This document shows, piece by piece, positions 48,238-64,000 of a stretch of DNA of 64,000 nucleotides. This DNA comes from Vicinamibacterales bacterium (GTDB lineage: Bacteria > Acidobacteriota > Vicinamibacteria > Vicinamibacterales > 2-12-FULL-66-21): positions 24,115 to 88,114 of the forward strand of contig JBMDXB010000013.1 of NCBI GenBank assembly GCA_048594885.1. Reading direction: 5' to 3'. Under the pieces are notes generated by a model. That model saw nothing but the letters and a program-made list of their open reading frames with translations, searched no databases and was not told the DNA's origin. The position numbers and the translations under genes were made by a program. Position 1 is the stretch's first letter; each line of letters opens with the position of its first letter.

Positions 48238-50363
48238 TGCGCAGTAACAACAACGGCGTCCGCGTTCGCACCGGGTGGACGACCTGGATTTCAAGGCTCT
48301 CCGGCGCGGCGCTGCTCTTCCTCACCGTCACCGGGCTCGCCGTGACGTTCGGTCCCTTCCACACGCTCGTGCAGTGGGGGCTGTTGACGCACACCGTGGC
48401 CGGCGTGCTGCTCCTCGTGCCGCTCGCTTGGTACGTCGCGCGGCACTGGCTCGATTACCGCGCGTACCAGATGTCGTCGGTCGTGCTGCTCGGGTACGTC
48501 TCAGCCGCCGGCCTGATCGTGTGCCTCGTCTCTGGAATCGTCGTCACGTGGCAGGGGCTGCTCGGCCTCCGCATGTCGTGGGCGTGGCGCCAGGTGCACC
48601 TGATCTCGACGTTCGTGGCGGTCGGCGCGGCCGCCCCGCACATCATCCAGCTCCTGCTGCGCGTATTCCGCGTCATGCCCGCCGCCTCGCGCTACGTGAT
48701 CGCGTCGTCGGCGCTCGGCGCCGCCGGGTTGGTGGTCGTCGCGCTCCTCCCGCTCGCCTACCCGGATCCGCAGTATGTCAACGAGTTCCCGGCGGACTAC
48801 AGCTATGCGTTCGGCAAGGATCGACCGTTCGCGCCGAGCCTCGCGCGGACGACCACCAACGGCGCGTTCGACGCGCGCACACTCGCGGGCTCGCGGACCT
48901 GCGGAACCAGCAACTGCCACAGCGAAATCGTCAACGAGTGGCTGCCGAGCGCGCACCGCTACGCCGCGATGGATCCGCTGTTCCAGTTCATCCAGACGAC
49001 GATGGCCAAGCAGAACGGGCCGGAGTCGACGCGGTACTGCGGCGGCTGCCACGATCCGATTTCGCTCTTCTCCGGGACGAAGAACATCTTCGCGAAGGAC
49101 CTCACCGGTCTCCACGGCTACCAGGAAGGCGTGTCGTGTCTCGCGTGCCACTCGATCAAGGAAACGGACATCAAAGGGAACGCAGCGTACACGATCGGGC
49201 AGCCGTCCGAGTACCTGTGGCAATGGGAATCGCAGGGCGCCGGGCGGCTCGCGCGCGACTTCCTGATTCGGACCTATCCCGACGAGCACAACAAACTGAG
49301 CAAGCGCGCGTTCAAAGCGCCAGAGTACTGCGCCGCGTGCCACAAGCAGTTCATCGACTCCGAGGTCAACAAGGTTGGCTGGGTGCAGCTGCAGAACCAG
49401 TACGACAACTGGGCGAACAGCCACTGGAACTCCAAGGGTGATCCGAAGAAGACCGTGGAGTGCCGCGAGTGTCACATGCCGCTGGTGGACTCGAGAGACC
49501 CAGCCGCGGGCGACATCGCGGACTACAACCGCAGGGCGACCGATCGCAAGCATCGCAGCCATAGGTTCCTGGCGGCGAATCAGCTCATCCCGGCGCTCCT
49601 CAAGCTGGAGGGATGGGAACAACACACGCGCCTGACCGAACAGTGGCTCCAGGGGAAAGTGCGAATTCCGGAGATCGAGGAGAAGTGGGCGCAGGGCGCC
49701 GTCGTCAAGGTCGCGCTCGACGTCGGCGTGACGAAGCGGGCCGGAGTGCTGCCGATCCGCGTCGTGCTGACCTCGAACAAGGTCGGACACGACTACCCGA
49801 CGGGTCCGCTCGACATGATCCAGAGCTGGGTCGAGCTGCACGTCGTCGACGAAGAGGGGCGCAAGGTGTTTTCCTCGGGCACGCGCGACGAACGCAATTT
49901 CATCGCGCCGGGGTCGTTTCTCTTCAAGGCGGAGCCGGTCGATCAGCACGGTAATCTGATCGATCGTCACAATCTGTGGGAGATGGTCGGCGTCCGCTTC
50001 CGCCGGTCGTTGTTCCCCGGCTACTCCGACACCGTCGAGTACAACGTCGACTGCGGCAGCGTGTTCTCGCCGATGCCGGCTCACGGCGACGGGACGCGCG
50101 CACCAGCCGCGCCGGCCAGAGGCGACGGCAGCCAGCAGTTCGACGTGCCGCGCCCCGCGCGCGCGGGCCGGTACATGGTGACGGCGATCCTGCAGTATCG
50201 GAAAGTGGATCAGTTCCTGACCAATTACCTGCTCGGCGAGAACTCCGGCATCACCGCGCCGGTCATCGAGATCAGCCGGGCGACGGCGGTCTTCGAAGTG
50301 CCTCCGGCGCCCGCCGGAAAGCCCGGCGCGGCGGCGCCGATCCGGATCGTGGCCGCAGAATGA
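48238..50363 (+). CDS. Membrane-anchored multiheme c-type cytochrome (4 CXXCH + 1 CX4CH), paralog of 10490-13360 without the TPR tail
   Basis: GTG at 48238 preceded by AAGGAG. About 5 TM helices. Motifs CGTSNCH (48900-48920), CGGCH, CLACH, CAACH, CRECH. Motif order and spacing are collinear with the 10490 product ('...W..SAH...', 'KHRSHRF' vs 'KVKSHRF'). Confidence 0.8.
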
Positions 50364-52912
50364 GCGATGACAATCGTCCACGCCGTCTGAGCCGCCGCCA
50401 GCGACGCGTCGCCCTCACCGCCGTGCTGCTGCTGGGCGCGTTCGCCATCGGCGCGGTGGTGCTGGTGCGCGCCTACCGGCAGAATCAACCCGCGCAGTAC
50501 CGTCCGGGCGAAGCCAATGCCGACATCACGGCGTCACTTGCGCGGGACCTGCCGCCTGACGCCGCGCGGCCGGTATTCGCAGACGTGACCTCCGAGGCGG
50601 GTCTCGGCGGCTTCACCACCTTTGCGGGCGCGCGCACGTCGCAGCTTCCTGAAGACATGGGTCCGGGCGTCGCGTGGGGCGACTACGACAACGACGGTGA
50701 CGACGACGTGTTTCTGGTCAGCGCCGGCGGGCCGCTCGGCGCGAAGGCGGAACAGTTGGCGCCGAGCGCGCTATTCGAGAACCTGGGCGGCGGACGCTTC
50801 CAGCGAGCCGCCGGCTTTCCGGAGCCACGTATCATCGGCATGGCCGCGGCGTGGGGCGACTACGACGGGGATGGCTGGATCGACCTCGCCGTCAGTGGAT
50901 ACAACGCGCTGCTGCTGTTCCGGAACGACCGCGGCCGGTTCTCGCTCGATCGGCAGTTCGTCAGCCGGCCCGGATTCTGGTCGGGTCTCGCGTGGGGCGA
51001 CTACGACAACGATCGCCGGCTGGATTTGTACGTCTGCGGATACGTGCAGTACCTCGAGACGGGCTCGGCGCACGCTGCCGTCACGCAACAGTACGGCAGA
51101 TCGGTTCCCTTCACGCTCAACCCCGCGTCGTACGAGCCGCAGGCGAACCTGTTGTTCCGCAACACCGGACGCGGCACGTTCGTCGAGACGGCGGCGCGGC
51201 TCGGCGTCGCCAACCCGGAAGGCCGCAGCCTGAGCGCGCTCTGGCACGACTTCGACGACGACGGGTGGCTGGACCTCTACGTTGCCAACGACATCTCCGA
51301 CAACGTGCTGTATCGAAACGCCAACGGCCGATTCAAAGACATCAGCCATCCGGCGTGGGTTGCGGACTACCGCGGCGCGATGGGACTGGCGGCCGGCGAC
51401 TGGAACCGCGACGGCGACGACGACCTGTTCATCACCCACTGGATCGCGCAGGAGAACGCGCTCTACGACTCGCATGCGAAACAGTCGGGAGCGTTGCGCT
51501 TCGCGGATGCCGCCGACGCCGTCGGCCTCGGTCAGGTGGCGCTGCCGATGGTCGGATGGGGCACGGAGTTCCTCGATTTCGACAGCGACGGGTGGCTCGA
51601 TCTCGTCGTCGCCAACGGCAGCACGTTCGAGACGGAGACTGCGCCAAAGACGCTGGTGCCGCAGCGGCCGTTCCTCTTCTGGAACCGCCGCGGCGAGCAC
51701 TTTTACGACGTCGCGCCGCTCGCGGCGCCGCTCTCGAAGGCTCACGTCGCGCGAGGCCTCGGCGTATCGGACTTCGACGGGGACGGAGACCTCGACGTAC
51801 TGATCGCGCGCAACGGAGGCGGTGTGCAACTGCTGCGCAACGACACCGCCGCGGGGCAGTGGCTGCAGATCGTGCTGCGCTCTCGCGCGTCCGCCGATGC
51901 GCCGACTGTCGTCGCGCGTGGCGCCGCCGCCGTGGCGCAGGCAGGTTCGGTCCAGATCCGGCGCAGCGTCACGAGCGCATCGTACCTATCGCAGAGCACG
52001 AGCACGCTGCACTTCGGGCTCGGAGCCGCAGCCCAGGTGGACAAGGTCACGGTGCGCTGGCGCGCGGGAGTCGTGACGGAGCACGGCCCGCTCGCCGCGG
52101 GCCGACGGTGGGAGATCACCGAGGGAGATCCGATTCCGCGGGAAATCCCACGTGCAGCCGGTACGCCGACGAGCGCGGGCGCCGCGCCCGCGTCCGACCG
52201 CGACCGCATCGTGGCGTTCTGGGACCGGCATCGAGCGGCGATGCACGCGCTGAAGTCGGAGAACGACCCGGCGAAGGCAGCGGGCCTGTTCGAGCAGGCA
52301 CTGGCGATCGATCCGGCGCACGAAGACGCGCGGTTCTACCTGGCGACGGCGCTCGCGGCACAGGGAAACACGGACGGGGCGCTGCGCCATTACGAGCAGA
52401 TGAACCGCACGAATGCGCGGAGCCACCGCAGCCTGACCGGCTGGGCCCGGCTGCGCGCGCTGACCAGCCGCGGGCCGGCCGACCTCGCGGCTGCGGAGGA
52501 CGCGCTGAACCGGGCGCACGATCTGAATCCGGAGGAAACCGGCGCGCTCGTGATGCTGGGCGAGATCGCGCTGATGCGCGGGCAGCACGCGGTGGCGGAG
52601 CGGCGGCTCAAAGCCGTGGCGCAGGCGAACGCGCGCGCCGCTGGGGCCTTCTTCCTCCTCGGCTACATCCGCTGGAAGGCCGGCGATGCGGAGCACGCTC
52701 GCGAGTATCTCGAACAGGCGCGAACGGCGCTTGGGCCGGAGTGGAAGCCAGCCGGATCGACGGCTGAAGGCGACGTCGCCCGCAGCGTCGCGCACGCCGC
52801 GACCCTGCTCTCGCGTTTCTGGGACCAGTGGGACGGCGTCGCCAGGGCGCCATCGTCCTATTCGCGTCTCGACGCCTACCTGCGCCGACCGGCGCGTTCG
52901 GGGTCACAATAG
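50360..52912 (+). CDS. Membrane-anchored FG-GAP/VCBS + ASPIC/UnbV (CRTAC1-like) protein with C-terminal TPR domain
   Basis: ATG at 50360 overlaps the cytochrome TGA (ATGA). 'RRVALTAVLLLGAFAIGAVVLV' signal-anchor. 'FADVTSEAGL...VAWGDYDNDGDDDVFLV'. UnbV-like '...SYLSQSTSTLHFGLG...VRWRAG'. C-terminal TPR ('LFEQALAIDPAHEDARFYLATALAAQGN...'). Confidence 0.85.
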   Translation: MSDDNRPRRLSRRQRRVALTAVLLLGAFAIGAVVLVRAYRQNQPAQYRPGEANADITASLARDLPPDAARPVFADVTSEAGLGGFTTFAGARTSQLPEDMGPGVAWGDYDNDGDDDVFLVSAGGPLGAKAEQLAPSALFENLGGGRFQRAAGFPEPRIIGMAAAWGDYDGDGWIDLAVSGYNALLLFRNDRGRFSLDRQFVSRPGFWSGLAWGDYDNDRRLDLYVCGYVQYLETGSAHAAVTQQYGRSVPFTLNPASYEPQANLLFRNTGRGTFVETAARLGVANPEGRSLSALWHDFDDDGWLDLYVANDISDNVLYRNANGRFKDISHPAWVADYRGAMGLAAGDWNRDGDDDLFITHWIAQENALYDSHAKQSGALRFADAADAVGLGQVALPMVGWGTEFLDFDSDGWLDLVVANGSTFETETAPKTLVPQRPFLFWNRRGEHFYDVAPLAAPLSKAHVARGLGVSDFDGDGDLDVLIARNGGGVQLLRNDTAAGQWLQIVLRSRASADAPTVVARGAAAVAQAGSVQIRRSVTSASYLSQSTSTLHFGLGAAAQVDKVTVRWRAGVVTEHGPLAAGRRWEITEGDPIPREIPRAAGTPTSAGAAPASDRDRIVAFWDRHRAAMHALKSENDPAKAAGLFEQALAIDPAHEDARFYLATALAAQGNTDGALRHYEQMNRTNARSHRSLTGWARLRALTSRGPADLAAAEDALNRAHDLNPEETGALVMLGEIALMRGQHAVAERRLKAVAQANARAAGAFFLLGYIRWKAGDAEHAREYLEQARTALGPEWKPAGSTAEGDVARSVAHAATLLSRFWDQWDGVARAPSSYSRLDAYLRRPARSGSQ

Positions 52913-52919
52913 CGTTCCG

Positions 52920-54173
52920 ATGAACGCGCTCCTCGCGGCCGGCTGTCTCGCGGTAGCCGGCCTGACTGTCATTCCTTCGAAAGAAGTCGTGCTCCTGTTT
53001 CACGACGGCGGCCATTTGCTGGCCGTGCGCCGATCAATCGACCGCGGCGAGGAGCGCTTCAAGCCGGCGGTCGCTGCGCTCGAGGAGGATGCGAAGCGTG
53101 CTCTGGCGATGTCGCCGGTGTCGGTGATGGACAAGACCGTCACGCCGCCGAGCGGCGACAAGCACGACTACATGAGCCAGGCGCCGTACTGGTGGCCCGA
53201 TCCGTCGAAGCCTCACGGCACGCCGTACATCCGCCGCGACGGCGAGCGCAATCCGGAGATCCAGCGCATCAGCGATCACGACAATCTCGGGCGGCTGACG
53301 TCCGCCGTGTCGACGCTGGGCCTGGCGCACTTCCTCACCGGCCGCGACGAATACGCGGCGCGCGCCGCGCGGCTGCTGCGCGCGTGGTTCATCGATCCGG
53401 CGACGCGCATGACTCCGCATTTGAAATTCGGACAAGGTATTCCGGGAATCACGGAGGGCCGCGGCATCGGGATCATCGAGACGCGCAACCTTCCGGCGAT
53501 GCTCGATGGCGTGCAGCTGCTCAGGCTTGCGAGCTCGCGCGCCTGGACGGACGGCGACGAGGCGGCGCTCCAGTCCTGGATGCGCGCGTATCTCTCCTGG
53601 CTGCTCGAGAGTCCGCACGGCAAGGATGAATCGCGCAACGGCAACAATCACGAGACGTGGTACGACGTCCAGGTCGCCGCGCTCGCGCTCTACACGCACC
53701 AGCCGGATATCGTGCGGCGCACGCTCGAGGGCGCGAAGCAGCGCATCGCGCGGCAGATCGAGCCGGACGGCGGGCAGCCGCGCGAACTGGAGCGCACGCG
53801 CTCGTTCGACTACAGCGTCATGAACCTGACCGGCTTCTTCGACCTGGCGACGCTCGGCGAGCGTACCTCGGCGCATCTGTGGGAGTACCGATCGCCGGAC
53901 GGCCGCAGCATCAGGCAGGCGCTCGACTTCCTGATCCCGTACGCCGCAGGCGAGCGCGCGTGGCCGCACAAGCAGATTACGTCGTTCCGGCCTGCGAGCC
54001 TGACGCCGCTGCTGCGCCGCGCCGTGGTGGCGTGGAAAGAGCCAAAGTACGCCGCGCTCGCAGAACGGCTCGGTGGCGCAGGCTATCGAGTCGATCTGGC
54101 CGTTCCCGGGCTCCCTTCGGAGATCTCGCCTTCAACGGGAGCACGGGAGAAGGGGGAGCCACTTTTCTTTTGA
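52920..54173 (+). CDS. Alginate-lyase-family (PF05426/AlgL-like) polysaccharide lyase candidate
   Basis: 417 aa from the ATG at 52920. 'SGDKHDYMSQAPYWWPDP' and 'GNNHETWYDVQVAAL' resemble the conserved NNHSYW block of AlgL-type lyases. Hydrophobic N-terminus. Confidence 0.6.
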   Translation: MNALLAAGCLAVAGLTVIPSKEVVLLFHDGGHLLAVRRSIDRGEERFKPAVAALEEDAKRALAMSPVSVMDKTVTPPSGDKHDYMSQAPYWWPDPSKPHGTPYIRRDGERNPEIQRISDHDNLGRLTSAVSTLGLAHFLTGRDEYAARAARLLRAWFIDPATRMTPHLKFGQGIPGITEGRGIGIIETRNLPAMLDGVQLLRLASSRAWTDGDEAALQSWMRAYLSWLLESPHGKDESRNGNNHETWYDVQVAALALYTHQPDIVRRTLEGAKQRIARQIEPDGGQPRELERTRSFDYSVMNLTGFFDLATLGERTSAHLWEYRSPDGRSIRQALDFLIPYAAGERAWPHKQITSFRPASLTPLLRRAVVAWKEPKYAALAERLGGAGYRVDLAVPGLPSEISPSTGAREKGEPLFF

Positions 54174-54253
54174 GAAGAGAAGATAGCTCCCGTCCTCCCC
54201 TCTTCCTGTTGTCCGGTCGGGCGGAGTCGAACGCGATCGGCTACCATCGCCCC

Positions 54254-55690
54254 ATGCGAATCAGTCTGCTCGCCCTCGTGGTGGTCCTCGCGGCCGCCGG
54301 CGCGGGGGAATCCCGTCTTGCCGGCCAGGCGGCGACACGCCCGAACATCCTGATGGTCATCGCCGACGACTGGTCGGCGCCGGACGCCGGCGTGCTCGGC
54401 AACGCGGGCGTGCGGACGCCGGCGTTCGATCGCGTCGCCAATGAGGGCGTGCGGTTCGACAATGCGTTCGTCGCGGCGCCGTCGTGCACGCCGTCGCGGG
54501 CGGCAATCCTCACCGGCCGCTGGCCGCATCAGCTCGAGGAGGGCGCCAATCTGCATGGCACGCTGCCCGCGAAGTTCGCGGTGTATCCCGATCTGCTCGA
54601 ACGCGCCGGCTACGCCGTCGGCCTGACCGGCAAGGGTTGGGGACCCGGCGACTTCAAGGCCGGCGGCCGCACGCGCAATCCGGCGGGGCCGAACTTTCCA
54701 AGCTTCGCGGCGTTCCTCAAACAGCTCCCGGCCGACAAGCCGTTCGCCTACTGGATCGGTCCGAGCGATCCGCATCGTCCCTACGAGGCGGGCGCCGCGC
54801 GCGAGACGGGACTGAAGCCGGCGGCGGTGCGCGTGCCGGCGACGCTGCCCGACCTGCCGCCAGTCCGCGCCGACCTGCTCGACTACTACTTCGAGGTCGA
54901 GCGGTTCGACAAGGCGCTTGCCGAGGCGATCGCGTTGCTCGAGCAGAGCGGACGTCTCGACAACACGATCGTCATCGCCACGGGTGACAACGGCAGGCCG
55001 TTCCCGCGCGACAAGGCGGCGATCTACGACGGCGGCTCGCGCGTGCCGCTGGCGATCCGGTGGCCGCGAGGGATCACCACGCGGCGCGCCGTTGACGCGT
55101 TCGTTTCGTTGACCGACATCGCGCCGACCGTCCTCGAAGCCGCGGGCGTGAGGCCCGCGGCGGAGATGACGGGGCGCAGCCTGATGCCGCTGCTCCAGGG
55201 GAAGGAGGCGCCGGGACGCGAGCACGTCTTCATCGAGCGCGAGCGGCACGCCTTCGTTCGCGCCGGCAACGCGAGCTATCCGGTACGCGCGGTGCGGACG
55301 CGGCAGCATCTCTACATCCGCAATCTGGCGCCGGACCGCTGGCCGGCGGGCGATCCGATCTGGGTGAACTCCGTCGGCCCGTTCGGCGACGTCGATCACG
55401 GCCCGTCGAAGGACTTCATCCTTGCCTATCGCGACGACCCCGCCATCGCGCCGTTCTACGCGCTCGCGTTCACGAAGAAGCCGGCGGAGGAGCTCTACCT
55501 GCTCGCGAGCGATCCATACCAGTTGGTGAACGTTGCCGATCGGCCGGAGCACGCCGCTGCGAAAGCCCGTCTGCGCACGCAGCTCGATGAATGGATGCGC
55601 AGCAGCGGCGACCCGCGAGCGGCCAGCGATGCCGACCCGTTCAGCGCGTATCCGTACTACGGCGCCGGCTCCAAGTGGCCTCGCAAGTGA
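54254..55690 (+). CDS. Formylglycine-dependent sulfatase (arylsulfatase family)
   Basis: 478 aa from the ATG at 54254. Signal 'MRISLLALVVVLAAAGAG'. 'NILMVIADDW'. C-x-P-S-R motif 'APSCTPSRAAILTGR'. Confidence 0.88.
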   Translation: MRISLLALVVVLAAAGAGESRLAGQAATRPNILMVIADDWSAPDAGVLGNAGVRTPAFDRVANEGVRFDNAFVAAPSCTPSRAAILTGRWPHQLEEGANLHGTLPAKFAVYPDLLERAGYAVGLTGKGWGPGDFKAGGRTRNPAGPNFPSFAAFLKQLPADKPFAYWIGPSDPHRPYEAGAARETGLKPAAVRVPATLPDLPPVRADLLDYYFEVERFDKALAEAIALLEQSGRLDNTIVIATGDNGRPFPRDKAAIYDGGSRVPLAIRWPRGITTRRAVDAFVSLTDIAPTVLEAAGVRPAAEMTGRSLMPLLQGKEAPGREHVFIERERHAFVRAGNASYPVRAVRTRQHLYIRNLAPDRWPAGDPIWVNSVGPFGDVDHGPSKDFILAYRDDPAIAPFYALAFTKKPAEELYLLASDPYQLVNVADRPEHAAAKARLRTQLDEWMRSSGDPRAASDADPFSAYPYYGAGSKWPRK

Positions 55691-56778: not shown

Positions 56779-57567
56779 GTGCGCTACCAGGACAAGGTCG
56801 CGATCGTCACCGGCGGGACGAAGGGGATCGGCCTCGGCTGCGTCCGCGTCTTCGTGCAGGAAGGCGGCTCGCGCGTGGTCTTCTGCGGCCGGAACGAGGC
56901 GGCCGGACGTGAGATCGAGCGGGAGCTGAACGCCGCCGGCCCCGGCTCGGCGCACTTCGTTCGCGCGGACGTGTCGAACGTGGACGACGTGAAGCGGCTG
57001 ATCGATTACACGGCCGCGGCGCTCGGCCGCATCGACTGCCTGATCAACAACGCCGGCTGGCACCCGCCGCACCAGCCAATCGACGACTTTTCCGTCGACG
57101 ACTTCCGCGCCCTGTTCGAACTGAACGTGGTGAGCGGCTTCGCGGCGTGCAAGTTCGCGCTGCCGCACCTGCGGAAGGTGAAAGGCAACATCATCAACAT
57201 GTCGAGTCTGGTCGGCTCGATGGGGCAGATCGGCGCGACGACCTACGTGGCGACCAAAGGCGCGATCACTGCGTTCACGAAGGCGCTCGCGGTGGACGAG
57301 GCGGCGCACGACGTCCGCGTGAACTCGGTATCGCCGGGGAACATCTACACGCCGCTGTGGCAGGAAGCGATCGACGCGGCGCCCGATCCGCAGGCCTGCC
57401 GCGCCGATGGTGACGCCGCCCAACTGCTCGGACGCATGGGAACGATCGAGGAAGCCGGGCGGCTGTGCCTCTTCATCGCCGCCGAGGCGACGTTCACCAC
57501 CGGCGTCGATCACATCCTGAGTGGCGGCGCCGAGCTCGGATACGGACGCAAGACGAGGAAGCCGTAG
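56779..57567 (+). CDS. Short-chain dehydrogenase/reductase (SDR)
   Basis: GTG at 56779 gives 'MRYQDKVAIVTGGTKGIGLG' (TGxxxGxG). 'NNAG'. Catalytic 'MSS...YVATK'. The long ORF-track 5' extension (from 56218) is antisense to the Ldh_2 gene and is rejected. Confidence 0.85.
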   Translation: MRYQDKVAIVTGGTKGIGLGCVRVFVQEGGSRVVFCGRNEAAGREIERELNAAGPGSAHFVRADVSNVDDVKRLIDYTAAALGRIDCLINNAGWHPPHQPIDDFSVDDFRALFELNVVSGFAACKFALPHLRKVKGNIINMSSLVGSMGQIGATTYVATKGAITAFTKALAVDEAAHDVRVNSVSPGNIYTPLWQEAIDAAPDPQACRADGDAAQLLGRMGTIEEAGRLCLFIAAEATFTTGVDHILSGGAELGYGRKTRKP

Positions 57568-57595: not shown

Positions 57596-57662
57596 AACAC
57601 GGAGATCACGGAGAACACGGAGCAAACTAAATTGCCTCCGTGTGCTCCGTGCGCTCCGTGTG
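57596..57662. repeat. Inverted 9-mer array: (NNCACGGAG)x3 - 13-nt loop - (CTCCGTGNG)x3
   Basis: aacacggag atcacggag aacacggag | caaactaaattgc | ctccgtgtg ctccgtgcg ctccgtgtg. Flanking strings 'cgtttcaacacggag' and 'gctgcggccctgttcga' recur at 58375-58425. Confidence 0.85.
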
Positions 57663-57686: not shown

Positions 57687-58334
57687 CTATTTCACCGCAA
57701 AGCAGTAGAACAGCCCGTCGCCGCCGGTCTTGCGCAGCGCCTCCTGGCTGCAGCCGCCCACCGTGTGCGCGGAATTCCACGACGTCGGGTTCTGCCCGCC
57801 ACCCTGACGATCGTGATGGCCGACCCGCGCGCCGCCCTCAGTGCTGCTCGTCCAGTTCTTGCACGTCGCATCCGCGTCGGCCGGCATCGCGGTTCCGTCG
57901 AGATTCGCGCCGGTGAGGATGTCGTGGCGGTTGGGTGTGTCGCCGCGGCCGTTGACGACTTCACCCTTCTCGTTCAGTTGCGTCTCTTTCGTCAGGTTGT
58001 TCTTGTCGCTGTGTAGATCCGCGACGTCCTTCGCGATCATGACGCCCTTCACGTTGTACCAAGGGCCCTTGCCGATGCGATCGCGCGCGTTGATGGCTTT
58101 GTCGCCCTGCGTGCTCAGATACGCCCGCCACTGACGACCACCGACGCCGGCCGCGGCCGCCAGCTTGGTGCAGTGCGCATCGGCTCCGGCCAGCCCTCCG
58201 AGATTGCCGCCGCTACCCGACCCCACGCTGGTGATGAAAAAACTCATCGGCTGCGCCTTGTCTTGCGCCGCGACGACGGCCACGAGCGCGGCCGCGATCG
58301 CGAAACTCAGCGCCACTAACACCTTCCGGATCAT
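57687..58334 (-). CDS. Small secreted protein, endostatin-like / C-type-lectin-fold candidate
   Basis: 215 aa. Strong GGAGGAGGA RBS. Signal 'MIRKVLVALSFAIAAALVAVVAAQ'. 'GGNLGGLAGADAHCTKLAAAAGVGGRQWRAYLST' parallels endostatin '[32 protein letters not shown]' (comparison from memory). Four Cys in a comparable order. Confidence 0.6.
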   Translation of the reverse strand: MIRKVLVALSFAIAAALVAVVAAQDKAQPMSFFITSVGSGSGGNLGGLAGADAHCTKLAAAAGVGGRQWRAYLSTQGDKAINARDRIGKGPWYNVKGVMIAKDVADLHSDKNNLTKETQLNEKGEVVNGRGDTPNRHDILTGANLDGTAMPADADATCKNWTSSTEGGARVGHHDRQGGGQNPTSWNSAHTVGGCSQEALRKTGGDGLFYCFAVK

Positions 58335-58374
58335 GGCTAGTCCTCCTCCTCTACTCCATCAATCGTATCCACAT

Positions 58375-58411
58375 CGTTTCAACACGGAGCCGTGCCCTCC
58401 GTGTTGGAACG
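58375..58411. repeat. Single-unit copy of the CACGGAG palindromic element
   Basis: cgtttcaacacggag - ccgtgcc - ctccgtgttggaacg (14 of 15 complementary). Same orientation and flanks as the 57596-57662 element. Confidence 0.8.
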
Positions 58412-58456
58412 CTGCGGCCTTGCTGAAATGGAGCGCGTTGGCCGTGCTGAACAGGA

Positions 58457-60907
58457 TCAGAAACGGTTCCCCTTCGTCTTCGTCCTCACGCGCATCAGAT
58501 ACATGTCGGCCGTGATGTACAGCGTGCTGCCGTCGTCGCCCCACGCGCAGTTGGCGGTGGCCTGCCCGGTGTCGATCGTGCCGAGGTGCTTGCCTTCTGG
58601 CGAGATGATCAACACGCCGCCCGGTCCCGCCGCCCACAGATTGCCGTTGACGTCGATCTTCAGGCCGTCGGGCAGGCCGCGGCGCGTCTTCGTCATCGGC
58701 GTCGCGTCGAAGAGCACGCGGCTGTTCGTCAGCGTGCCGTCCTTCGCGAGGTCGAACACGCGCCAGATCGCGGCGCTCTCATCTGACTGCGCGACGTAGA
58801 GCCGCCGCTCGTCCGGCGAGAACGCCAGGCCGTTCGGCCGTGTCATGTCACGCGTCAGCAGCGTGACCTCCCCTTTCGCGCTGCGCCTGAACACGCCGGC
58901 GTAGGGCAGCTCGCGTTTCGGGTCGTCCCACTGCTTCTCCATGCCGTAGGCCGGATCGGTGAAGTACAAATCGCCGTTGCTGTGGAAGACGAGATCGTTC
59001 GGACTGTTGAACCGCTTGCCCTCGTAGCGATCCGCAAGCGTCGAGAAAGCCGGCTTGGGCGCGGTGAGCGGCGCCTCCATGATCGCGACGCGGCGGTCGC
59101 CGTGCTGGCAGAGCGCCAGCCGCCCGCGCGGGTCGAGCGTGAGGCCGTTCGAGCCGGTCTCGCCGCCGCGCGGCGCCGAGCCGGTGTAGCCTGACGGCGT
59201 CAGATATGGCTTCGCCCCCTCGCCCTGCTTCCAGCGGTGGACGATGTTCTTGGGGACGTCGGAGAAGAGCAGGTAGCCGCCGTCCTTCACCCACACGGGG
59301 CCCTCGCTCCAGTCGTATCCCTCCGCGAGGATTTCGATCTTGGCGTTCGGATCGATCAGCCGATCGAGCGCTGGATCCAGTCGTTCGATGCGCATGGCAG
59401 TCTTTGGCTGTGAAGCCGCGTGGACGGCCGTCTCCGGCACCCCCGCGGCGCGCAGGAGCACGCGCCCCTGCTGGTAAATGGTCATCCCGGCGAGCGCGCC
59501 GTAGAGCACGATCGACCACACCATCGCCGCGAGCCGGTAGGAGCGCAGCCGGATCGCACCCGGCAGCGCGCGGCGGTTCAGCACGATCAGCAGGAATGAG
59601 TAGACGAACATGATCGCTCCCGCGGAACAGGCGGAGATGACCAGCAGGACGAGCGGCTGGTCGAGGCCGGCGAGGATGATGCCACAGCCGACGAGCACCA
59701 TCACCCAGACGAGCGCGAAGTACAGCCGGCTCTCCGAGACCGACGATGTCCTGAGGTAAGTGGACTTGAGGATGTCCGCCGTCAGCCGGCTCGTGTAATC
59801 GGTGATCCCCATCGAGGCGGTGAAGAGCGAGAAGGCGCCGACCGCCCAGAAGAGCAGCCCGAACCACGGTGCCACCTTCGCCTGGAGCTGTTGCCCCTCG
59901 ATCTTCAGGAAGCTGACGTTGTTCGGCAGCCCCGCCTGGCCGAAGAGCGTCGAGTGCGCGAGCATGGACGTCAGGCAGATCGTCACGACCGTGACCAGCA
60001 CGAACGTGACCGCCTGTTCCACGTTGACGAAGCGCCACCACCGCCGCCAGTGCGACATGTTGCCGGCGTCCGGCTCGAACATGAACGCGGTAGCGGCGTG
60101 CGCGTCCGCCTCTTCGACGCCGGTCACCGGACTCACCAGGCGCGGCACGTAGCGGCCCATGCCGAACCCCTTGTCGCGGATCCAGTTGCTCTGACAGAGG
60201 TTCTGCCCGCCGCCTGCCCCCGCATACGCGACAGCGCCCATGAGCAGCGCGAACCCAAGCTCGCTGGGCACCGAGCCGAACGCGACGAGCCCGCCCGGCA
60301 GCGCCGCCCACGTCGTCCCGTCGATCGCGAACGCCACCGCCAGCGCAACGAGCAGGAGCACCGCCGCCAGCTTGACGAACACCAACCGCTCGAGCGCGAC
60401 GTAGATGACGGGCGCCAGCGTCAGCGAGGCGCCGATCACCAGCAGGATCCCGATCGCGACCATCCGCGGATTGCCGCCGAGCAGATAGGTCGTCAGCGTC
60501 GCCGAGCTCATCGCCCAGCCGGGCCAGAAGTTGCCGAACGACACGAGCACCGCGAACGTGAGGCCCCAGTGTTTCCACAGCCGGTTGAACCCGGTCAGCG
60601 CCGTCTCGCCGGTGGCGAGCGTGTAGCGCTCGATTTCCATGTTGAGGAAGAACTGCGTGACGACGCCGAGGATCGCGCCCCACAGGAAGACGAGCCCGAC
60701 CTGCGAGGCGATGTACGGCCAGAGGATGAACTCGCCGGACGACACGCCGACGCCGGCCGCGACGACGCCCGGGCCGACGATCCGCCAGAGCTGCCGGGGC
60801 GGCTCCGGAAGATCGCGGACCTGATAGGCGGGAAGGTGGTCGATGACCTGTGGCGGCACGGGGTCAATGCTAAATGCTAAATGCCGAATGCCAAAACAAT
60901 TTGGCAT
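58457..60907 (-). CDS. Fusion protein: Nramp-family divalent-metal transporter (about 11 TM) + C-terminal SMP-30/gluconolactonase/LRE-like beta-propeller
   Basis: Single ORF with no stop between the halves. Nramp N-terminus 'LWRIVGPGVVAAGVGVSSGEFILWPYIASQVGLVFLWGAILG...FFLNMEIERYTLATGE'. From nt 59395 downward: 'MRIERLDPALDRLIDP...EGPVWVKDGGYLLFSDVP...NSPNDLVFHSNGDLYFTDP...RPNGLAFSPDERRLYVA...PDGLKIDVNGNLWAAG'. Start ambiguous: ATG 60907 (inside the hairpin repeat) or GTG 60859. Confidence 0.8.
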   Translation of the reverse strand: MPNCFGIRHLAFSIDPVPPQVIDHLPAYQVRDLPEPPRQLWRIVGPGVVAAGVGVSSGEFILWPYIASQVGLVFLWGAILGVVTQFFLNMEIERYTLATGETALTGFNRLWKHWGLTFAVLVSFGNFWPGWAMSSATLTTYLLGGNPRMVAIGILLVIGASLTLAPVIYVALERLVFVKLAAVLLLVALAVAFAIDGTTWAALPGGLVAFGSVPSELGFALLMGAVAYAGAGGGQNLCQSNWIRDKGFGMGRYVPRLVSPVTGVEEADAHAATAFMFEPDAGNMSHWRRWWRFVNVEQAVTFVLVTVVTICLTSMLAHSTLFGQAGLPNNVSFLKIEGQQLQAKVAPWFGLLFWAVGAFSLFTASMGITDYTSRLTADILKSTYLRTSSVSESRLYFALVWVMVLVGCGIILAGLDQPLVLLVISACSAGAIMFVYSFLLIVLNRRALPGAIRLRSYRLAAMVWSIVLYGALAGMTIYQQGRVLLRAAGVPETAVHAASQPKTAMRIERLDPALDRLIDPNAKIEILAEGYDWSEGPVWVKDGGYLLFSDVPKNIVHRWKQGEGAKPYLTPSGYTGSAPRGGETGSNGLTLDPRGRLALCQHGDRRVAIMEAPLTAPKPAFSTLADRYEGKRFNSPNDLVFHSNGDLYFTDPAYGMEKQWDDPKRELPYAGVFRRSAKGEVTLLTRDMTRPNGLAFSPDERRLYVAQSDESAAIWRVFDLAKDGTLTNSRVLFDATPMTKTRRGLPDGLKIDVNGNLWAAGPGGVLIISPEGKHLGTIDTGQATANCAWGDDGSTLYITADMYLMRVRTKTKGNRF

Positions 60908-60934
60908 TCAGCATTCGGCATTCAGCATTGACCC
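60861..60934. repeat. 74-bp near-perfect hairpin built from inverted heptamer arrays (AATGCTA/AATGCCG)x4 - acaa - (GGCATTC/AGCATTC)x4
   Basis: gggtcaatgctaaatgctaaatgccgaatgccaaa | acaa | tttggcattcagcattcggcattcagcattgaccc. 35-nt arms with 4 mismatches. Lies between the TBDR stop (60941) and the Nramp-fusion start. Confidence 0.9.
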
Positions 60935-60940
60935 GCGTCG

Positions 60941-63900
60941 TCAGAAGACGAACTTCGCGGCGATCTGGATGTCCCGCGGCAGGTTGGTCTGGCTCGTCAC
61001 CTTCCCGAAGTTCGCATCGCCCGGACTGGTATTCGGTCCGCTGTACACCGTCTGGTTCAGCGCGTTCAGGAACTCGACGTGGAACTGCGCCCGCAGGCGA
61101 TCGTTGAAGCGGACGCGCTTGACGAGCGAGATGTCCCACAGGTTGAGCATCTGGCTGCGCACGTCCGGCAGCCGCGACGGGAAGTAGCGGATGTTGCTGG
61201 TCAGGTTCTTCCGCTGATCGTTCCGCTGCTTCACCGGGTCGTCCACGCCATTGGTCTGCACCAGCGCATCGTGGAAGTAGAAGCCGCTGATGTCCCAGAC
61301 CGTCTTGTCGGGATCCTTCGAGTATTTCGACTTCAGCTTCGTCGGATCGCCGTCGTAATAGAGGTTGCCGAACCCGATCGGACGTCCGGATTGCAGCGTG
61401 CCCATCGCCGTCACGCTCCAGCCGCCCGCAATGGCGTCGAGGACCGCGGGCATGTTGTTGCCCCAGCGGCGGTCACGGCCGAACGGCAGCTCGAGGATGC
61501 CGGTCAGCGACAGCCGGTGCGGCGTGTCGTCGCCCGAAAGCCGCTCTTCGAGCACGGTGTCGGTGGCGTTCAGCCTCGCCACCTTCTCGGTGAACTTCGA
61601 TCCCGTATACGCGGTGAGGAGCGTGAAGCCCGAGTGGAACCGGCGCTCGACCTTGACCTGCACCGAGTTGTATTCGGTCGTCCCCTCGTTGTCCCACGTC
61701 GACACGCCGGTGAAGTGCGGGTACGGCCGCAGCAGGTTCTGACGCGCGAATCGTGCGTTGTTGTGGCCCGTGCCCGGAATCAGGCCGCGGAACGGGTTGT
61801 CGACCTGCGCCGTCAGGAACGTGTTCGTATCGATCTGCGACTGGTCGCGGAAGCGGCTCGTCGAGAGGTACTGCGCCGGCACCGCGTTGAGATCGACTTC
61901 CGTGGTGATGTCGTAGCCGCGGCTGCCGACGTAGGCGACGTCCAGGAGCCACTGGCCGGGCAGCTCACGCTGGAAGCCGACCGAGTAGCGCATGTTCTGC
62001 GGGTTCTTGAAGTTCTCCGGCGCAGAACGCGGCAGGCCCTGGCCGAGGAACGTGTTCGGCCCCGCGGAGCTGCCCGCCGGCTCCAGCACCCCCTGATGGA
62101 ACGGGTTGGCCATCGTCGCCTGGAACGTCAACCCGACGTTGGCGGTGGGCTGGATGCTCGTGTTCTGCGAGTAGCCCGGCTGGTTCACGCCGTTCGAGAA
62201 CACGAACGGCACCGTGTAGATGCCGAAGCCGCCGCGGATGGCCGTCTTCTTGTCGAGGGCGTAGGCGAAGCCGGCACGCGGCTGGATGTTGTTGCTGTCG
62301 GCGTTCCAGATCTGGCGCCGCGAGTCGCTGGCGAAATTGAGCCCGCCGCGCACCTGGAACGCGGAGACAGGAACTTCGGGGATCGGACTCGCCGCATACT
62401 GCGCCTGCGAGGCGGACGCGATAGCGATCGCCGCCGCCGGATCGAAGGTCGTCGAGATGCGGTTCTGCGACTCCCACGGCGCCGTCTCGTACTCGTAACG
62501 CACGCCGAAGTTGACCGTCAGCTTGTCGGTGAGGCGCCAGTCGTCCTGCACGTAGACGCCGTGGTAGGCGGTGAACATGTTGCGCGGAGTGTTGCGATCG
62601 ATGCTGCCTCCGGTGACCGAGCCGAGCATGAACGCCGCCAGGTCCATGCCGAAGAGATCGCTCGCGTTATCGCGCTCACGGACGTAATTGCCGCGGAACG
62701 TATACTCGCCGGCCTGCCGGTTGGCGTTGAACACCGACTCCCGGTAGAGCCGCAGGTCGTAGCCCGCGCGGAGCGAATGGCGGCCCTTCAGCTTCGTGAA
62801 CGTCGGCTGGAACGAGTAGATGCTGTGCGTGGTCGAGCTGCCGAGGTTGTTGCCGATGTCCGTGTACTGGTTCAGATCGAACAGCGGGAAGTAGCGCGCG
62901 CCCTGGAACAGCGCGACGGTCTGCGGCGAGAACGCGAGCGACGCCGGATCGAACTTGCCGAAGTGCGGCCGCACGTTCGGCTCCTGGAAGCGCTGCCACC
63001 CGGCGCGCATGTTGAGCAGCGACGTGTTGCTCCGCGTCCAGACGTGGTCCACCGTGACGCCGTCGTTGATCCGGTAGAGGAAGTTGCCGTCCGGAATGAC
63101 GCCGTTCACGGTCCCGAAGAAGTGACCGCGCGCCTCGACGCGATCGTTCCGCGTGAAGCGGACGAACATCTGCTGCTTGTCGCTGATCCGGTGATCGACG
63201 CGCGTCGAGATCGAATAGAAGTCGTCGGTGCGCGGGTTGGAGGCGATGTAGTTGTTCTGCAGCCCGTTGTTCGCCGTGCCCGCCCGGTTCGGCGTCGGGA
63301 TGTACTTCAAGACCTCGCGCGCGACCGGGCTGATGCGGTTCGTCGGAATGATGTTGCCCACGAACGGATCGCGGACGACGCGGGCGCCCACCTGGCGCGC
63401 CGTGAGCGGATCGTAGAGCTGCACGCCGAGCGCGAGCAGCTCGGAGAAGTCGCCGGTGCGCATCTTTTCGGTCGCTACCGTGCGCGTGCCCGGCTCCGGG
63501 AACTCGTCGTACAACCACTCGATGGCGCCGAAGAAGAACGTGCGGTTGGCGCCGTTGTAGCCGGGGAGGCGAACCGGGCCGCCGACGTGGCCGCCGAACC
63601 GCTCGTAGGACAGCTCCGGCTTCGGCGAGTTGTTGCGCTTCAGAAAGAAGTCCGTCTCCGACAGCTTGTCGTCGCGCAGGTAGTAATAGCCCTCGCCCTT
63701 GTAGCTGTTGGTGCCGCTCTTGAGCGTGACGTCGACCAGCGCGCCGGCCGTGTGGCCGTCGCTCGCGTCGAAGCTCGCGGTCTTGACCTTGAACTCCTGC
63801 ACGGCGCCCGCCGGCGGCACGAACGCGACGCGGCGGCCGCTCGTCATGTTGGGCGATCCGTCGAGCGAGAACTCGTTGCCGCCCACAGCGCCGTCGGCAA

Positions 63901-64000
63901 CGACGCCGGACGTGCCGGCGTTGTCGAACGGGCGGGCGAACTTCAGATCGCCGGTGAAGGCGACGCCCGGCACCATGCGCGCGAGCTGGAAGGGATTGCC
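60941..64000 (-). CDS. TonB-dependent receptor (CarboxypepD_reg-type family), 5' end outside the window
   Basis: The ORF runs to the window edge. 'EFSLDGSPNM..VAFVPPAGAVQEFKVKTASFDASDGHTAGALVDVTLKSGTNSYKG' is collinear with aa about 195-255 of the other receptors. Ends ...IAAKFVF. Confidence 0.85.
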   Translation of the reverse strand, partial: GNPFQLARMVPGVAFTGDLKFARPFDNAGTSGVVADGAVGGNEFSLDGSPNMTSGRRVAFVPPAGAVQEFKVKTASFDASDGHTAGALVDVTLKSGTNSYKGEGYYYLRDDKLSETDFFLKRNNSPKPELSYERFGGHVGGPVRLPGYNGANRTFFFGAIEWLYDEFPEPGTRTVATEKMRTGDFSELLALGVQLYDPLTARQVGARVVRDPFVGNIIPTNRISPVAREVLKYIPTPNRAGTANNGLQNNYIASNPRTDDFYSISTRVDHRISDKQQMFVRFTRNDRVEARGHFFGTVNGVIPDGNFLYRINDGVTVDHVWTRSNTSLLNMRAGWQRFQEPNVRPHFGKFDPASLAFSPQTVALFQGARYFPLFDLNQYTDIGNNLGSSTTHSIYSFQPTFTKLKGRHSLRAGYDLRLYRESVFNANRQAGEYTFRGNYVRERDNASDLFGMDLAAFMLGSVTGGSIDRNTPRNMFTAYHGVYVQDDWRLTDKLTVNFGVRYEYETAPWESQNRISTTFDPAAAIAIASASQAQYAASPIPEVPVSAFQVRGGLNFASDSRRQIWNADSNNIQPRAGFAYALDKKTAIRGGFGIYTVPFVFSNGVNQPGYSQNTSIQPTANVGLTFQATMANPFHQGVLEPAGSSAGPNTFLGQGLPRSAPENFKNPQNMRYSVGFQRELPGQWLLDVAYVGSRGYDITTEVDLNAVPAQYLSTSRFRDQSQIDTNTFLTAQVDNPFRGLIPGTGHNNARFARQNLLRPYPHFTGVSTWDNEGTTEYNSVQVKVERRFHSGFTLLTAYTGSKFTEKVARLNATDTVLEERLSGDDTPHRLSLTGILELPFGRDRRWGNNMPAVLDAIAGGWSVTAMGTLQSGRPIGFGNLYYDGDPTKLKSKYSKDPDKTVWDISGFYFHDALVQTNGVDDPVKQRNDQRKNLTSNIRYFPSRLPDVRSQMLNLWDISLVKRVRFNDRLRAQFHVEFLNALNQTVYSGPNTSPGDANFGKVTSQTNLPRDIQIAAKFVF

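Follow-up and report, generated by a model that had tools for sequence, protein, structure and literature searches.

An in-frame fusion of an Nramp-fold permease with a lactonase propeller in Vicinamibacterales and its possible role in sugar-acid uptake

The fusion gene

We studied a stretch of 64,000 nucleotides from a Vicinamibacterales bacterium (Acidobacteriota; NCBI GenBank assembly GCA_048594885.1, contig JBMDXB010000013.1, positions 24,115 to 88,114 of the forward strand), referred to as the window. Its minus strand carries at 58457..60907 an open reading frame (ORF) of 816 codons without internal stop; the interval includes the stop codon at 58457-58459. The ORF encodes an Nramp-related permease followed in frame by a complete SMP-30/gluconolactonase/LRE beta-propeller. 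Both domains and their joint frame had been noticed in an initial annotation of the sequence, and the position it gave for the start of the propeller sequence agrees with ours, i.e., MRIERLDPALDRL begins at nt 59395. The features of the gene are as follows (pLDDT: predicted local distance difference test score).

58457..60907, minus strand: fusion ORF as given, with translation probably starting at the GTG at 60859
60861..60934, no strand: AT-rich long hairpin that separates receptor and fusion genes; 35-nt arms with 89% complementarity
59564..60775, minus strand: core of the Nramp-related permease (residues 45-448, NF037982)
60731..60742, minus strand: S56-S57-G58-E59 at the helix-1 break, in place of the Nramp D-P-G-N (via paralogue alignment)
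59474..59533, minus strand: helix 11 (residues 459-478; hydropathy and model)
59393..59446, minus strand: flexible linker (residues 488-505; pLDDT <50 at 491-501)
58460..59392, minus strand: SMP-30/gluconolactonase/LRE beta-propeller (residues 506-816)
59303-59305, 58997-58999, 58832-58834 and 58667-58669, minus strand: metal-ligand codons of E535, N637, N692 and D747, respectively (alignment to 3dr2)

The GTG at 60859 is a likelier start than the ATG at 60907, since this ATG is located inside the hairpin of a repeat family and relatives start near 60859. The protein would then comprise about 800 aa. With a folding energy of -62.7 kcal/mol (z -12.9), the hairpin (60861-60934) represents a repeat that is dispersed over the same genome, with 88 matches on many contigs. 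Its contig depth is 40-78 compared to about 4 beside it (about tenfold excess), and in the sequencing runs it shows many loose ends, joined to many different flanks. It is composed of AATGC-like units.

The fusion is genuine and not an assembly slip. No missed stop or frameshift, for which the initial annotation had recommended a check, is found at the junction. Short contigs from four runs of one study span it (59334-59569, 59245-59545, 59217-59595, 59291-59483) with 0 differences and 0 gaps; the four runs are possibly the source samples, such that these contigs check the assembly and not the biology. Besides the window's protein there are eight further full-length fusions (781-812 aa, 67-84% identical) on separate contigs. 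That is, the frame is open in 9/9 full-length proteins with Nramp-type permease and lactonase, and among these nine both length and sequence of the linker vary. The same uninterrupted ORF is present in a genome of the same genus (G153), where it lies behind the same receptor gene.

An artificial joining of two separate genes by a missed stop, a frameshift or a chimeric assembly is extremely improbable. It could be argued for by the fragmentation of the genome assembly (176 contigs) and by two long-read metagenome-assembled genomes (MAGs) in which an open frame across both genes resembles an assembly frameshift. Against it stand the junction contigs of the four runs, the architecture common to nine proteins on separate contigs and to a second genome of the genus, and the domains themselves, which both fit their families to their ends with no signal peptide left. 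The two MAG frames (L015:5899-8457, L033:5962-8424) were tried as further fusions and rejected as probable assembly frameshifts that mimic one: their permease match stops early (residues 450 and 382), the 3' part departs from the family, and the lactonase retains its own signal-peptide-like segment.

We also looked at the internal ATG (Met505), from which, as the initial annotation had considered, the propeller might be translated independently. This residue is V, L or P in other Nramp-type fusions and, where kept, is also found within the mature part of free lactonases that bear a signal peptide. A separate start is thus not supported.

The fusion is rare but recurrent. We surveyed 301 genomes of the order (own genome included; one unpublished genome, G284, is in the tally). 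At E<=1e-60, either domain is matched in 132/301; the fusion is present in 2/301, namely the own genome and G153. Three further loci were inspected, of which G153 holds the fused ORF and G086 and G223 hold adjacent separate genes.

The permease domain

Residues 45-448 cover the whole NCBIfam model NF037982 ('Nramp family divalent metal transporter') with a score of 503 bits (cut-off 50). This model is broad, i.e., it also matches canonical MntH in MntH-bearing control genomes. In contrast, no match to the Pfam Nramp family (PF01566) is obtained at E<=0.1. A phmmer search of the protein against all PDB chains reports lactonases only and no solved Nramp, and a profile of 18 permease family members finds no Nramp in the PDB at E<=10. 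Because these sequence searches of the PDB found no Nramp, we used the fold and a paralogue as a bridge.

The AlphaFold model of the permease has a pLDDT of 84 and a predicted template modelling score (pTM) of 0.86. Its nine best Foldseek matches in the PDB are all MntH of D. radiodurans (6c3i E 2e-10; template modelling (TM) score up to 0.83). Other Nramps, a YcsG model, EleNRMT and NRAT follow, and then other carriers of the APC superfamily. The respective structural alignments to Nramps show 13-17% identity. A paralogue from the own genome links weakly to D. radiodurans MntH (E 3.9e-4). Given the NCBIfam match and the modelled fold, we assign the permease to the Nramp fold and, within it, to a deep, divergent clade. 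The Nramp identity proposed in the initial annotation thus holds for NF037982 and for the fold, but not for Pfam PF01566, for sequence similarity to solved Nramps or for the DxxN motif discussed below.

Hydropathy identifies 11 hydrophobic helices, and corresponding helices are present in both AlphaFold models, which show a LeuT-type fold with helices 1 and 6 broken. The loops facing the same side as the N-terminus carry 23 K+R and those facing the opposite side 2, which indicates an N-in/C-out topology. We take this to be the topology of bacterial MntH as well. Unfused permeases end few residues after helix 11. In the full-length model (pLDDT 90.1), permease and propeller have no fixed orientation to each other, and a two-chain complex prediction of permease and propeller gave neither support nor a verdict.

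Three more NF037982-type permeases are encoded in the own genome (C69:65718-66947, C15:81980-83209, C121:11390-12580; 137-174 bits). A Pfam Nramp search of the same genome finds no classical MntH; the best match is partial with 45.8 bits. Relatives of the window permease were collected from 80 loci (L001-L080). They are 60-76% identical and distributed over Acidobacteriota, Actinomycetota (including Streptomyces, Kribbella and Phytohabitans), Verrucomicrobiota, Bacteroidota (MAG) and Proteobacteria. This conservation across phyla is unusually high, which suggests horizontal spread or strong constraint.

The substrate site of the permease

For the substrate site, we compared the helix-1 break with the metal site of solved Nramps. 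In the classical Nramps, the helix-site motifs are DxxN and A/CxxM, in NRATs DxxN-AxxT and in NRMTs DxxG-TxxA/T, such that the Asp is common to all three (available sections of PMC8806188). The paralogue's G-S-G-E aligns onto the metal-site D-P-G-N of D. radiodurans MntH (8e5s), and all four NF037982-type genes of the own genome show [GS]-[GS]-G-E at helix 1. That is, DxxN is absent from the helix-1 break: the Asp is replaced by S or G and the Asn by Glu. This Glu (E59) does not vary among 18 family members, the most distant of which is 33% identical.

The unwound helix-6 segment (residues 225-236, AVAYAGAGGGQN) is glycine-rich and has no Met, Thr or His; it was read without a residue-level alignment to a solved Nramp. 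Nramps have an acidic/basic proton path on helices 3 and 9 (PMC8806188, available sections). Helix 3 of the window permease (residues 110-145) contains neither Asp nor Glu and thus lacks this feature. The permease is therefore probably not a classical Mn/Fe transporter.

The lactonase propeller

The propeller matches Pfam SGL (PF08450) with E 1.9e-44 and 152.5 bits (cut-off 26.3) over residues 533-800, corresponding to profile positions 1-244/246. It aligns end to end with the PDB entries 3e5z (E 8e-41) and 3dr2, an 'exported gluconolactonase' (E 8e-34). E535, N637, N692 and D747 are identical to E48, N134, N191 and D242 of 3dr2, which we take to be the Ca ligands of the latter, and occur without exception in 30 homologues, the most distant of which is 44% identical. 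The model contains 23 strands in residues 506-808, mostly with pLDDT >90, and shows an all-beta propeller fold (blades not counted singly). Since the four metal-ligand positions are kept, the propeller looks like an active metal-dependent lactonase.

Next, we compared the N-termini of fused and stand-alone forms. Among stand-alone orthologues (<=380 aa) in which the start motif 'IERLD' was found, 99/112 carry a hydrophobic, signal-peptide-like N-terminal extension with a median of 33 aa. The remaining 13 comprise 6 with <15 residues before the motif (probably truncated) and 7 below the threshold, 2 of them barely; three further orthologues without the motif are outside the 112. Fused proteins have no signal-peptide-like segment before the propeller. 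Given the N-in/C-out topology of the permease and the signal-peptide-like N-termini of the free orthologues, the propeller is periplasmic and tethered to the permease by a flexible linker of roughly 20 residues, and helix 11 replaces the signal peptide of the free-standing lactonases. This supports what the initial annotation had proposed from its count of 11 helices and an N-in orientation, i.e., a periplasmic propeller without need for a signal peptide; hydropathy, AlphaFold models and the K+R distribution (23 vs. 2) agree.

At 46-55% identity to the window propeller, more distant homologues are found fused to secreted enzymes, i.e., GH3, sulfatase, PhoD, alginate lyase and CBM6/35 with a Por tail. 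The same lactonase type also occurs as double propellers (~850-917 aa, many clusters, e.g., in Pyrinomonadaceae) and fused to an HbpS-like domain, FG-GAP/ASPIC, CN-hydrolase, M20 peptidase or GH3 glucosidase.

Gene neighbourhood

The fusion gene is flanked by the following genes.

60941..64000, minus strand: TonB-dependent-receptor-like outer-membrane barrel gene, directly upstream of the fusion gene and running off the window (Pfam OMP_b-brl_4, E 9.7e-187)
57687..58334, minus strand: 215-aa protein with hydrophobic N-terminus, downstream of the fusion gene (Pfam DUF1554, E 1e-4, below cut-off)
56797..57567, plus strand: convergent short-chain dehydrogenase/reductase (SDR) gene (Pfam adh_short, E 1.7e-50)
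53657-55690 and 50360-52912, strand not given: sulfatase gene and FG-GAP/ASPIC/TPR gene, few kb from the fusion (Pfam)

The 215-aa product has no NCBIfam match. For the SDR, the best NCBIfam models are generic SDR, glucose 1-dehydrogenase and L-fucose dehydrogenase, all below their cut-offs. Sulfatase and FG-GAP/ASPIC are families that are found fused to the same lactonase type in other organisms (P0285, P0320, P0313, P0390). Two imperfect hairpins with 21-nt arms (86% complementary) resemble terminators without a T run; one (58369-58417) is located just past the stop of the fusion gene and the other (57607-57660) between the DUF1554-like and the convergent SDR gene. An Rfam search around the fusion gene yields no riboswitch or other known RNA element; its matches are chance hairpins resembling miRNA precursors and one weak small RNA match far below the gathering score.

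The fusion gene occupies the second place in a conserved uptake unit that consists of a TonB-dependent receptor, the permease and an exported lactonase, often followed by genes for a Zn-dependent dehydrogenase and a short-chain reductase. The receptor is directly upstream on the same strand and is kept in relatives, as expected for a TonB-dependent locus of the carbohydrate-uptake type with outer receptor, inner permease and periplasmic enzyme; from the gene context, its substrate may be a carbohydrate derivative. In the unfused locus G223, the receptor is followed by the permease (490 aa), a gap of 6 nt, a lactonase with signal peptide (340 aa) and then an SDR, while in G086 permease and lactonase are separated by 237 nt. 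The order at L005 is receptor, GntP, permease, lactonase.

For the 80 loci of permease relatives, neighbours were counted by family-wise tblastn. The lactonase N-termini of L002 and L003 are identical to those of G086 and G223; they probably represent the same genomes and are not to be counted twice. In 14/80 loci, as well as in G153 and G223, a receptor orthologue (38-62% identity) precedes the permease on the same strand, with its end <=500 nt away. A Zn-dependent dehydrogenase is found downstream on the same strand in 16/80 loci, 13 of them within 300 nt. Other families near the permease are SDR (23/80), IlvD/Edd dehydratase (9/80), GFO/MocA oxidoreductase (5/80) and a distant SGL gene (5/80). 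Taken together, 39/80 loci have at least one of Zn-dependent dehydrogenase, SDR, IlvD/Edd, GFO/MocA and SGL nearby.

Some of these neighbours can be assigned by NCBIfam. The dehydratases pass the cut-offs of the models for L-arabinonate dehydratase (951 vs. 882 bits) and YjhG/YagF D-xylonate dehydratase (1030 vs. 808 bits), and the SDRs fit best to gluconate 5-dehydrogenase with 254 and 249 bits (under the cut-off of 279). At a Streptomyces locus (L066), the gene order is GntR/FCD regulator | permease, aldonate dehydratase, FAH-family protein, FAD oxidase; other actinobacterial loci are uninformative.

Fusions to GntP permeases and origin of the window copy

We also searched longer proteins with the propeller; the fusion counts refer to the best 120 long hits. 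Among these are 17 clusters (90% identity) of full fusions of a GntP permease to the lactonase (767-824 aa), the propellers of which are 64-93% identical to that of the window. Nramp-type fusions are fewer (9 among the best 120). Other architectures among the best 120 are many double propellers and single cases of PhoD, CN-hydrolase and M20 peptidase. The GntP-lactonase fusions are found within the proteins P0392-P0494, and JGI labels some of them as 'gluconate:H+ symporter' only. A second search, restricted to the best 150 of the 50%-identity cluster representatives, gave no Nramp-type fusion (its 850-aa top match is a double propeller) and is unfit for counting fusion clusters.

On the DNA level, one GntP-lactonase fusion was confirmed (L095:5938-8316), in which the gluconate-transporter signature is recognisable. 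It is the only true fusion (1/80 loci) in a metagenome scan with the GntP-lactonase alignment and GntP-specific patterns. No Nramp-type permease is found within 6 kb of it. That is, an ancestral arrangement of permease plus GntP-lactonase, as proposed below, was not seen on DNA at this locus.

In the propeller tree (59 domains), the window pairs (98, starred) with a GntP-borne propeller. This pair is inside a starred clade of 13 that contains fused forms only, i.e., 7 Nramp-type and 6 GntP-type, while a second pair of Nramp-type fusions branches elsewhere. The fused state requires at least 3 changes on starred branches of the propeller tree and at least 2 on the permease tree. The fusion thus arose at least twice. 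In the permease tree, an unfused permease (P0013, 87% identical) is placed next to the window.

The linker of the window (…PETAVHAASQPKTAM) is unlike the linkers of other Nramp-type fusions. Compared to the linker of the GntP-lactonase P0394 (…PAATVHAASQKPTAM), 11/15 of the last residues are identical (counted by eye). Because of this shared linker sequence, the simplest history that we infer is that the window copy came from a permease gene and an adjoining GntP-lactonase gene by in-frame deletion of the GntP body. P0013 and P0394 are reported from Logan contigs of equal size (4221 nt) and the same source, which would fit such a deletion if the two genes adjoin.

Comparison with known systems

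Classical Nramp/MntH proteins (D. radiodurans MntH, ScaDMT, EcoDMT) share with the window permease the LeuT-type fold, the 11 helices with broken helices 1 and 6, and the NCBIfam model. The window permease differs by its low identity (13-17%), the missing Pfam Nramp match, S/G-x-x-E in place of DxxN, the lack of Met/His in the helix-6 break and of acidic residues in helix 3, and its sugar-acid catabolic context. For solved or characterised Nramps, we found no paper in the open-access literature that describes a fused enzyme.

NRMT (Mg2+) and NRAT (Al3+) are Nramp-fold proteins in which an altered site goes along with an altered substrate (PMC8806188, available sections), and both are structural matches of the window permease (E 2e-7 and 2e-6). 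Still, they keep the helix-1 Asp (DxxG, DxxN) and are metal carriers according to the same sections, while the clade of the window has no such Asp.

YcsG/PxpT (MntG) are Nramp-family permeases encoded in 5-oxoprolinase operons, for which the organic substrate 5-oxoproline is argued from genetics (available sections of PMC13274462). This substrate is disputed, since Mn import is claimed in the available sections of PMC10448178; a fused enzyme is mentioned in neither of these sections. In sequence, YcsG/PxpT are not close to the window permease (no phmmer or profile match), while the YcsG model 9a52 reaches a TM score of 0.76.

For the propeller, the exported gluconolactonase of Xanthomonas (3dr2) and 3e5z of D. 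radiodurans belong to the same family, with an alignment over the whole domain and four identical metal-ligand positions. They are free soluble proteins; the window propeller, in contrast, is anchored through a permease and lacks its own signal peptide. A parallel arrangement is that of the GntP-lactonase fusions of Vicinamibacterales found here. Their propeller is of the same orthogroup (up to 93% identical), at the same position past the last helix and behind a homologous linker, but their carrier is a permease of the GntP/IT superfamily and not of the Nramp fold.

The E. coli idn (GntII) operon combines a GntP-type transporter with a Zn-dependent L-idonate dehydrogenase and an SDR that acts as 5-ketogluconate reductase. 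A similar pattern of transporter, Zn-dependent dehydrogenase and gluconate-5-dehydrogenase-like SDR is found behind the permease in at least 13 loci. An assignment of these neighbours as IdnD and IdnO was rejected, given 169 bits for L-idonate 5-dehydrogenase (cut-off 469) and 254 bits for gluconate 5-dehydrogenase (cut-off 279).

The initial annotation knew of no characterised example of the architecture. This agrees with our search of the open-access literature, where we found no paper on an Nramp-lactonase or GntP-lactonase fusion, nor one that links Nramp-like permeases to sugar acids. Enzyme-transporter fusions and divergent SLC11 clades are known kinds; new is the testable claim of a change in substrate class.

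Functional interpretation

Given the gene neighbourhood and the lost metal site, the Nramp-type permease may take up sugar acids. In this model, a sugar (aldono-)lactone would reach the periplasm and be hydrolysed by the propeller, and the permease beneath would take up the resulting sugar acid, probably together with a proton. The same lactonase on GntP gluconate permeases would work in the same way; for these fusions, periplasmic hydrolysis of gluconolactone followed by gluconate uptake is near-textbook logic. We consider such a tethering of periplasmic lactone hydrolysis to uptake of the product the best of the available readings, at about even odds, and favour it over a role in metal handling. 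A precedent for an organic substrate is PxpT, an Nramp-family protein required for growth on 5-oxoproline (PMC13274462, available sections).

A wider and more tentative proposal, which we put forward as possible but doubtful, concerns the whole NF037982 clade. It would represent the first Nramp-fold family of sugar-acid (aldonate):proton symporters, which lost the metal-binding Asp and serves oxidative sugar pathways in Acidobacteriota and Actinomycetota. Members from Vicinamibacterales, like GntP, would have captured the periplasmic lactonase repeatedly, and a TonB-dependent receptor would supply the resulting hydrolysis-and-uptake unit.

Several observations weigh against sugar-acid uptake. 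The substrate is read from the gene neighbourhood only, and this neighbourhood is patchy. None of the five sugar-acid-related families is found in 41/80 loci, a close lactonase orthologue is directly downstream in only 5/80 (one more is 4.8 kb off), and some loci are uninformative or of another kind, e.g., with tRNA synthetase/Dus or with TerC beside one Verrucomicrobial copy. The Zn-dependent dehydrogenase and SDR neighbours are under the NCBIfam equivalog cut-offs, such that no named pathway is established. At L005, a GntP is already present beside the permease, i.e., two sugar-acid carriers would be needed. The carboxylate of E59 persists in the helix-1 break as a potential cation ligand, the curated NCBI model that names the family a divalent metal transporter also covers canonical MntH, and the related YcsG is reported as an Mn importer (available sections of PMC10448178). 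Finally, the propeller is a promiscuous fusion partner and the window fusion looks like a by-product of a deletion, which is compatible with mere tethering.

In a rival reading, the permease would be a divalent-cation importer, with E59 replacing the Asp and the lactonase serving metal acquisition. Here, either a lactone-type chelator brought by the receptor would be hydrolysed and the freed ion imported, or the acid would act at the entrance of the transporter as a source of protons and of chelating gluconate. The name and score of NF037982 (503 bits), the fold nearest to solved Mn transporters, the invariant Glu and the TerC gene beside one relative fit this view, as does the upstream receptor, since TonB-dependent receptors often import metal chelates. 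The own genome moreover has no strong classical Nramp by Pfam (45.8 bits, partial), and YcsG is a reported Mn importer despite its catabolic operon (PMC10448178, available sections). We nevertheless regard metal import as unlikely. The permease lacks the Asp of all three characterised clades (PMC8806188, available sections), its unwound helix-6 segment has no Met/His and its helix 3 no acidic residue. There is no riboswitch or other Rfam element around the gene, and the neighbours are aldonate dehydratases, dehydrogenases and GntR/FCD regulators instead of metal-homeostasis genes. The same propeller is furthermore fused to GntP permeases for organic acids, and an importer cannot provide metal to an enzyme located in the periplasm, from which it imports. 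Because of the absent Asp, the direction of import, the GntP fusions and the sugar-acid gene clusters, the coupled metal supply or sensing role suggested in the initial annotation is not supported.

The fusion might also do nothing but keep the lactonase exported and anchored, without kinetic coupling and with a possibly unrelated permease substrate. A lactonase that has lost its signal peptide stays in the periplasm only when it is joined in frame to a C-out membrane protein encoded upstream. The match between the window linker and a GntP-lactonase linker suggests a deletion that merely re-anchored the domain. In the same direction point the many unrelated fusion partners of the propeller, the unfused state of most relatives and a linker that is variable and modelled with low confidence. 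On the other hand, fusions to both kinds of permease arose repeatedly, the 13-member clade has fused forms only, both domains remain intact in fused forms as distant as 67% identity, and the unfused forms are operon partners 6 nt apart. We consider a neutral tether improbable. The gene itself is a genuine, selectively maintained fusion.

Implications

Nramp-fold proteins are routinely annotated as metal transporters. If sugar-acid uptake is true, the widespread Asp-less clade marks a change of substrate class within the fold, since the metal-binding Asp is missing from it and both neighbourhood and fusions connect it with lactonases and aldonate enzymes; this would correct many annotations. 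The fusions offer a direct experimental handle, as one polypeptide should convert an external lactone into an imported acid. Nramp-type and GntP-type fusions together are a clear natural example of a periplasmic enzyme joined to the transporter that presumably takes up its product. They also illustrate a way for an enzyme to give up its signal peptide and rely on the last membrane helix of a neighbour instead. The hydrolysis-uptake unit could be a route for oxidised sugars, e.g., aldonolactones from oxidative polysaccharide breakdown in soil, and a confirmed function would make the locus a defined pathway for such compounds in soil Acidobacteriota.

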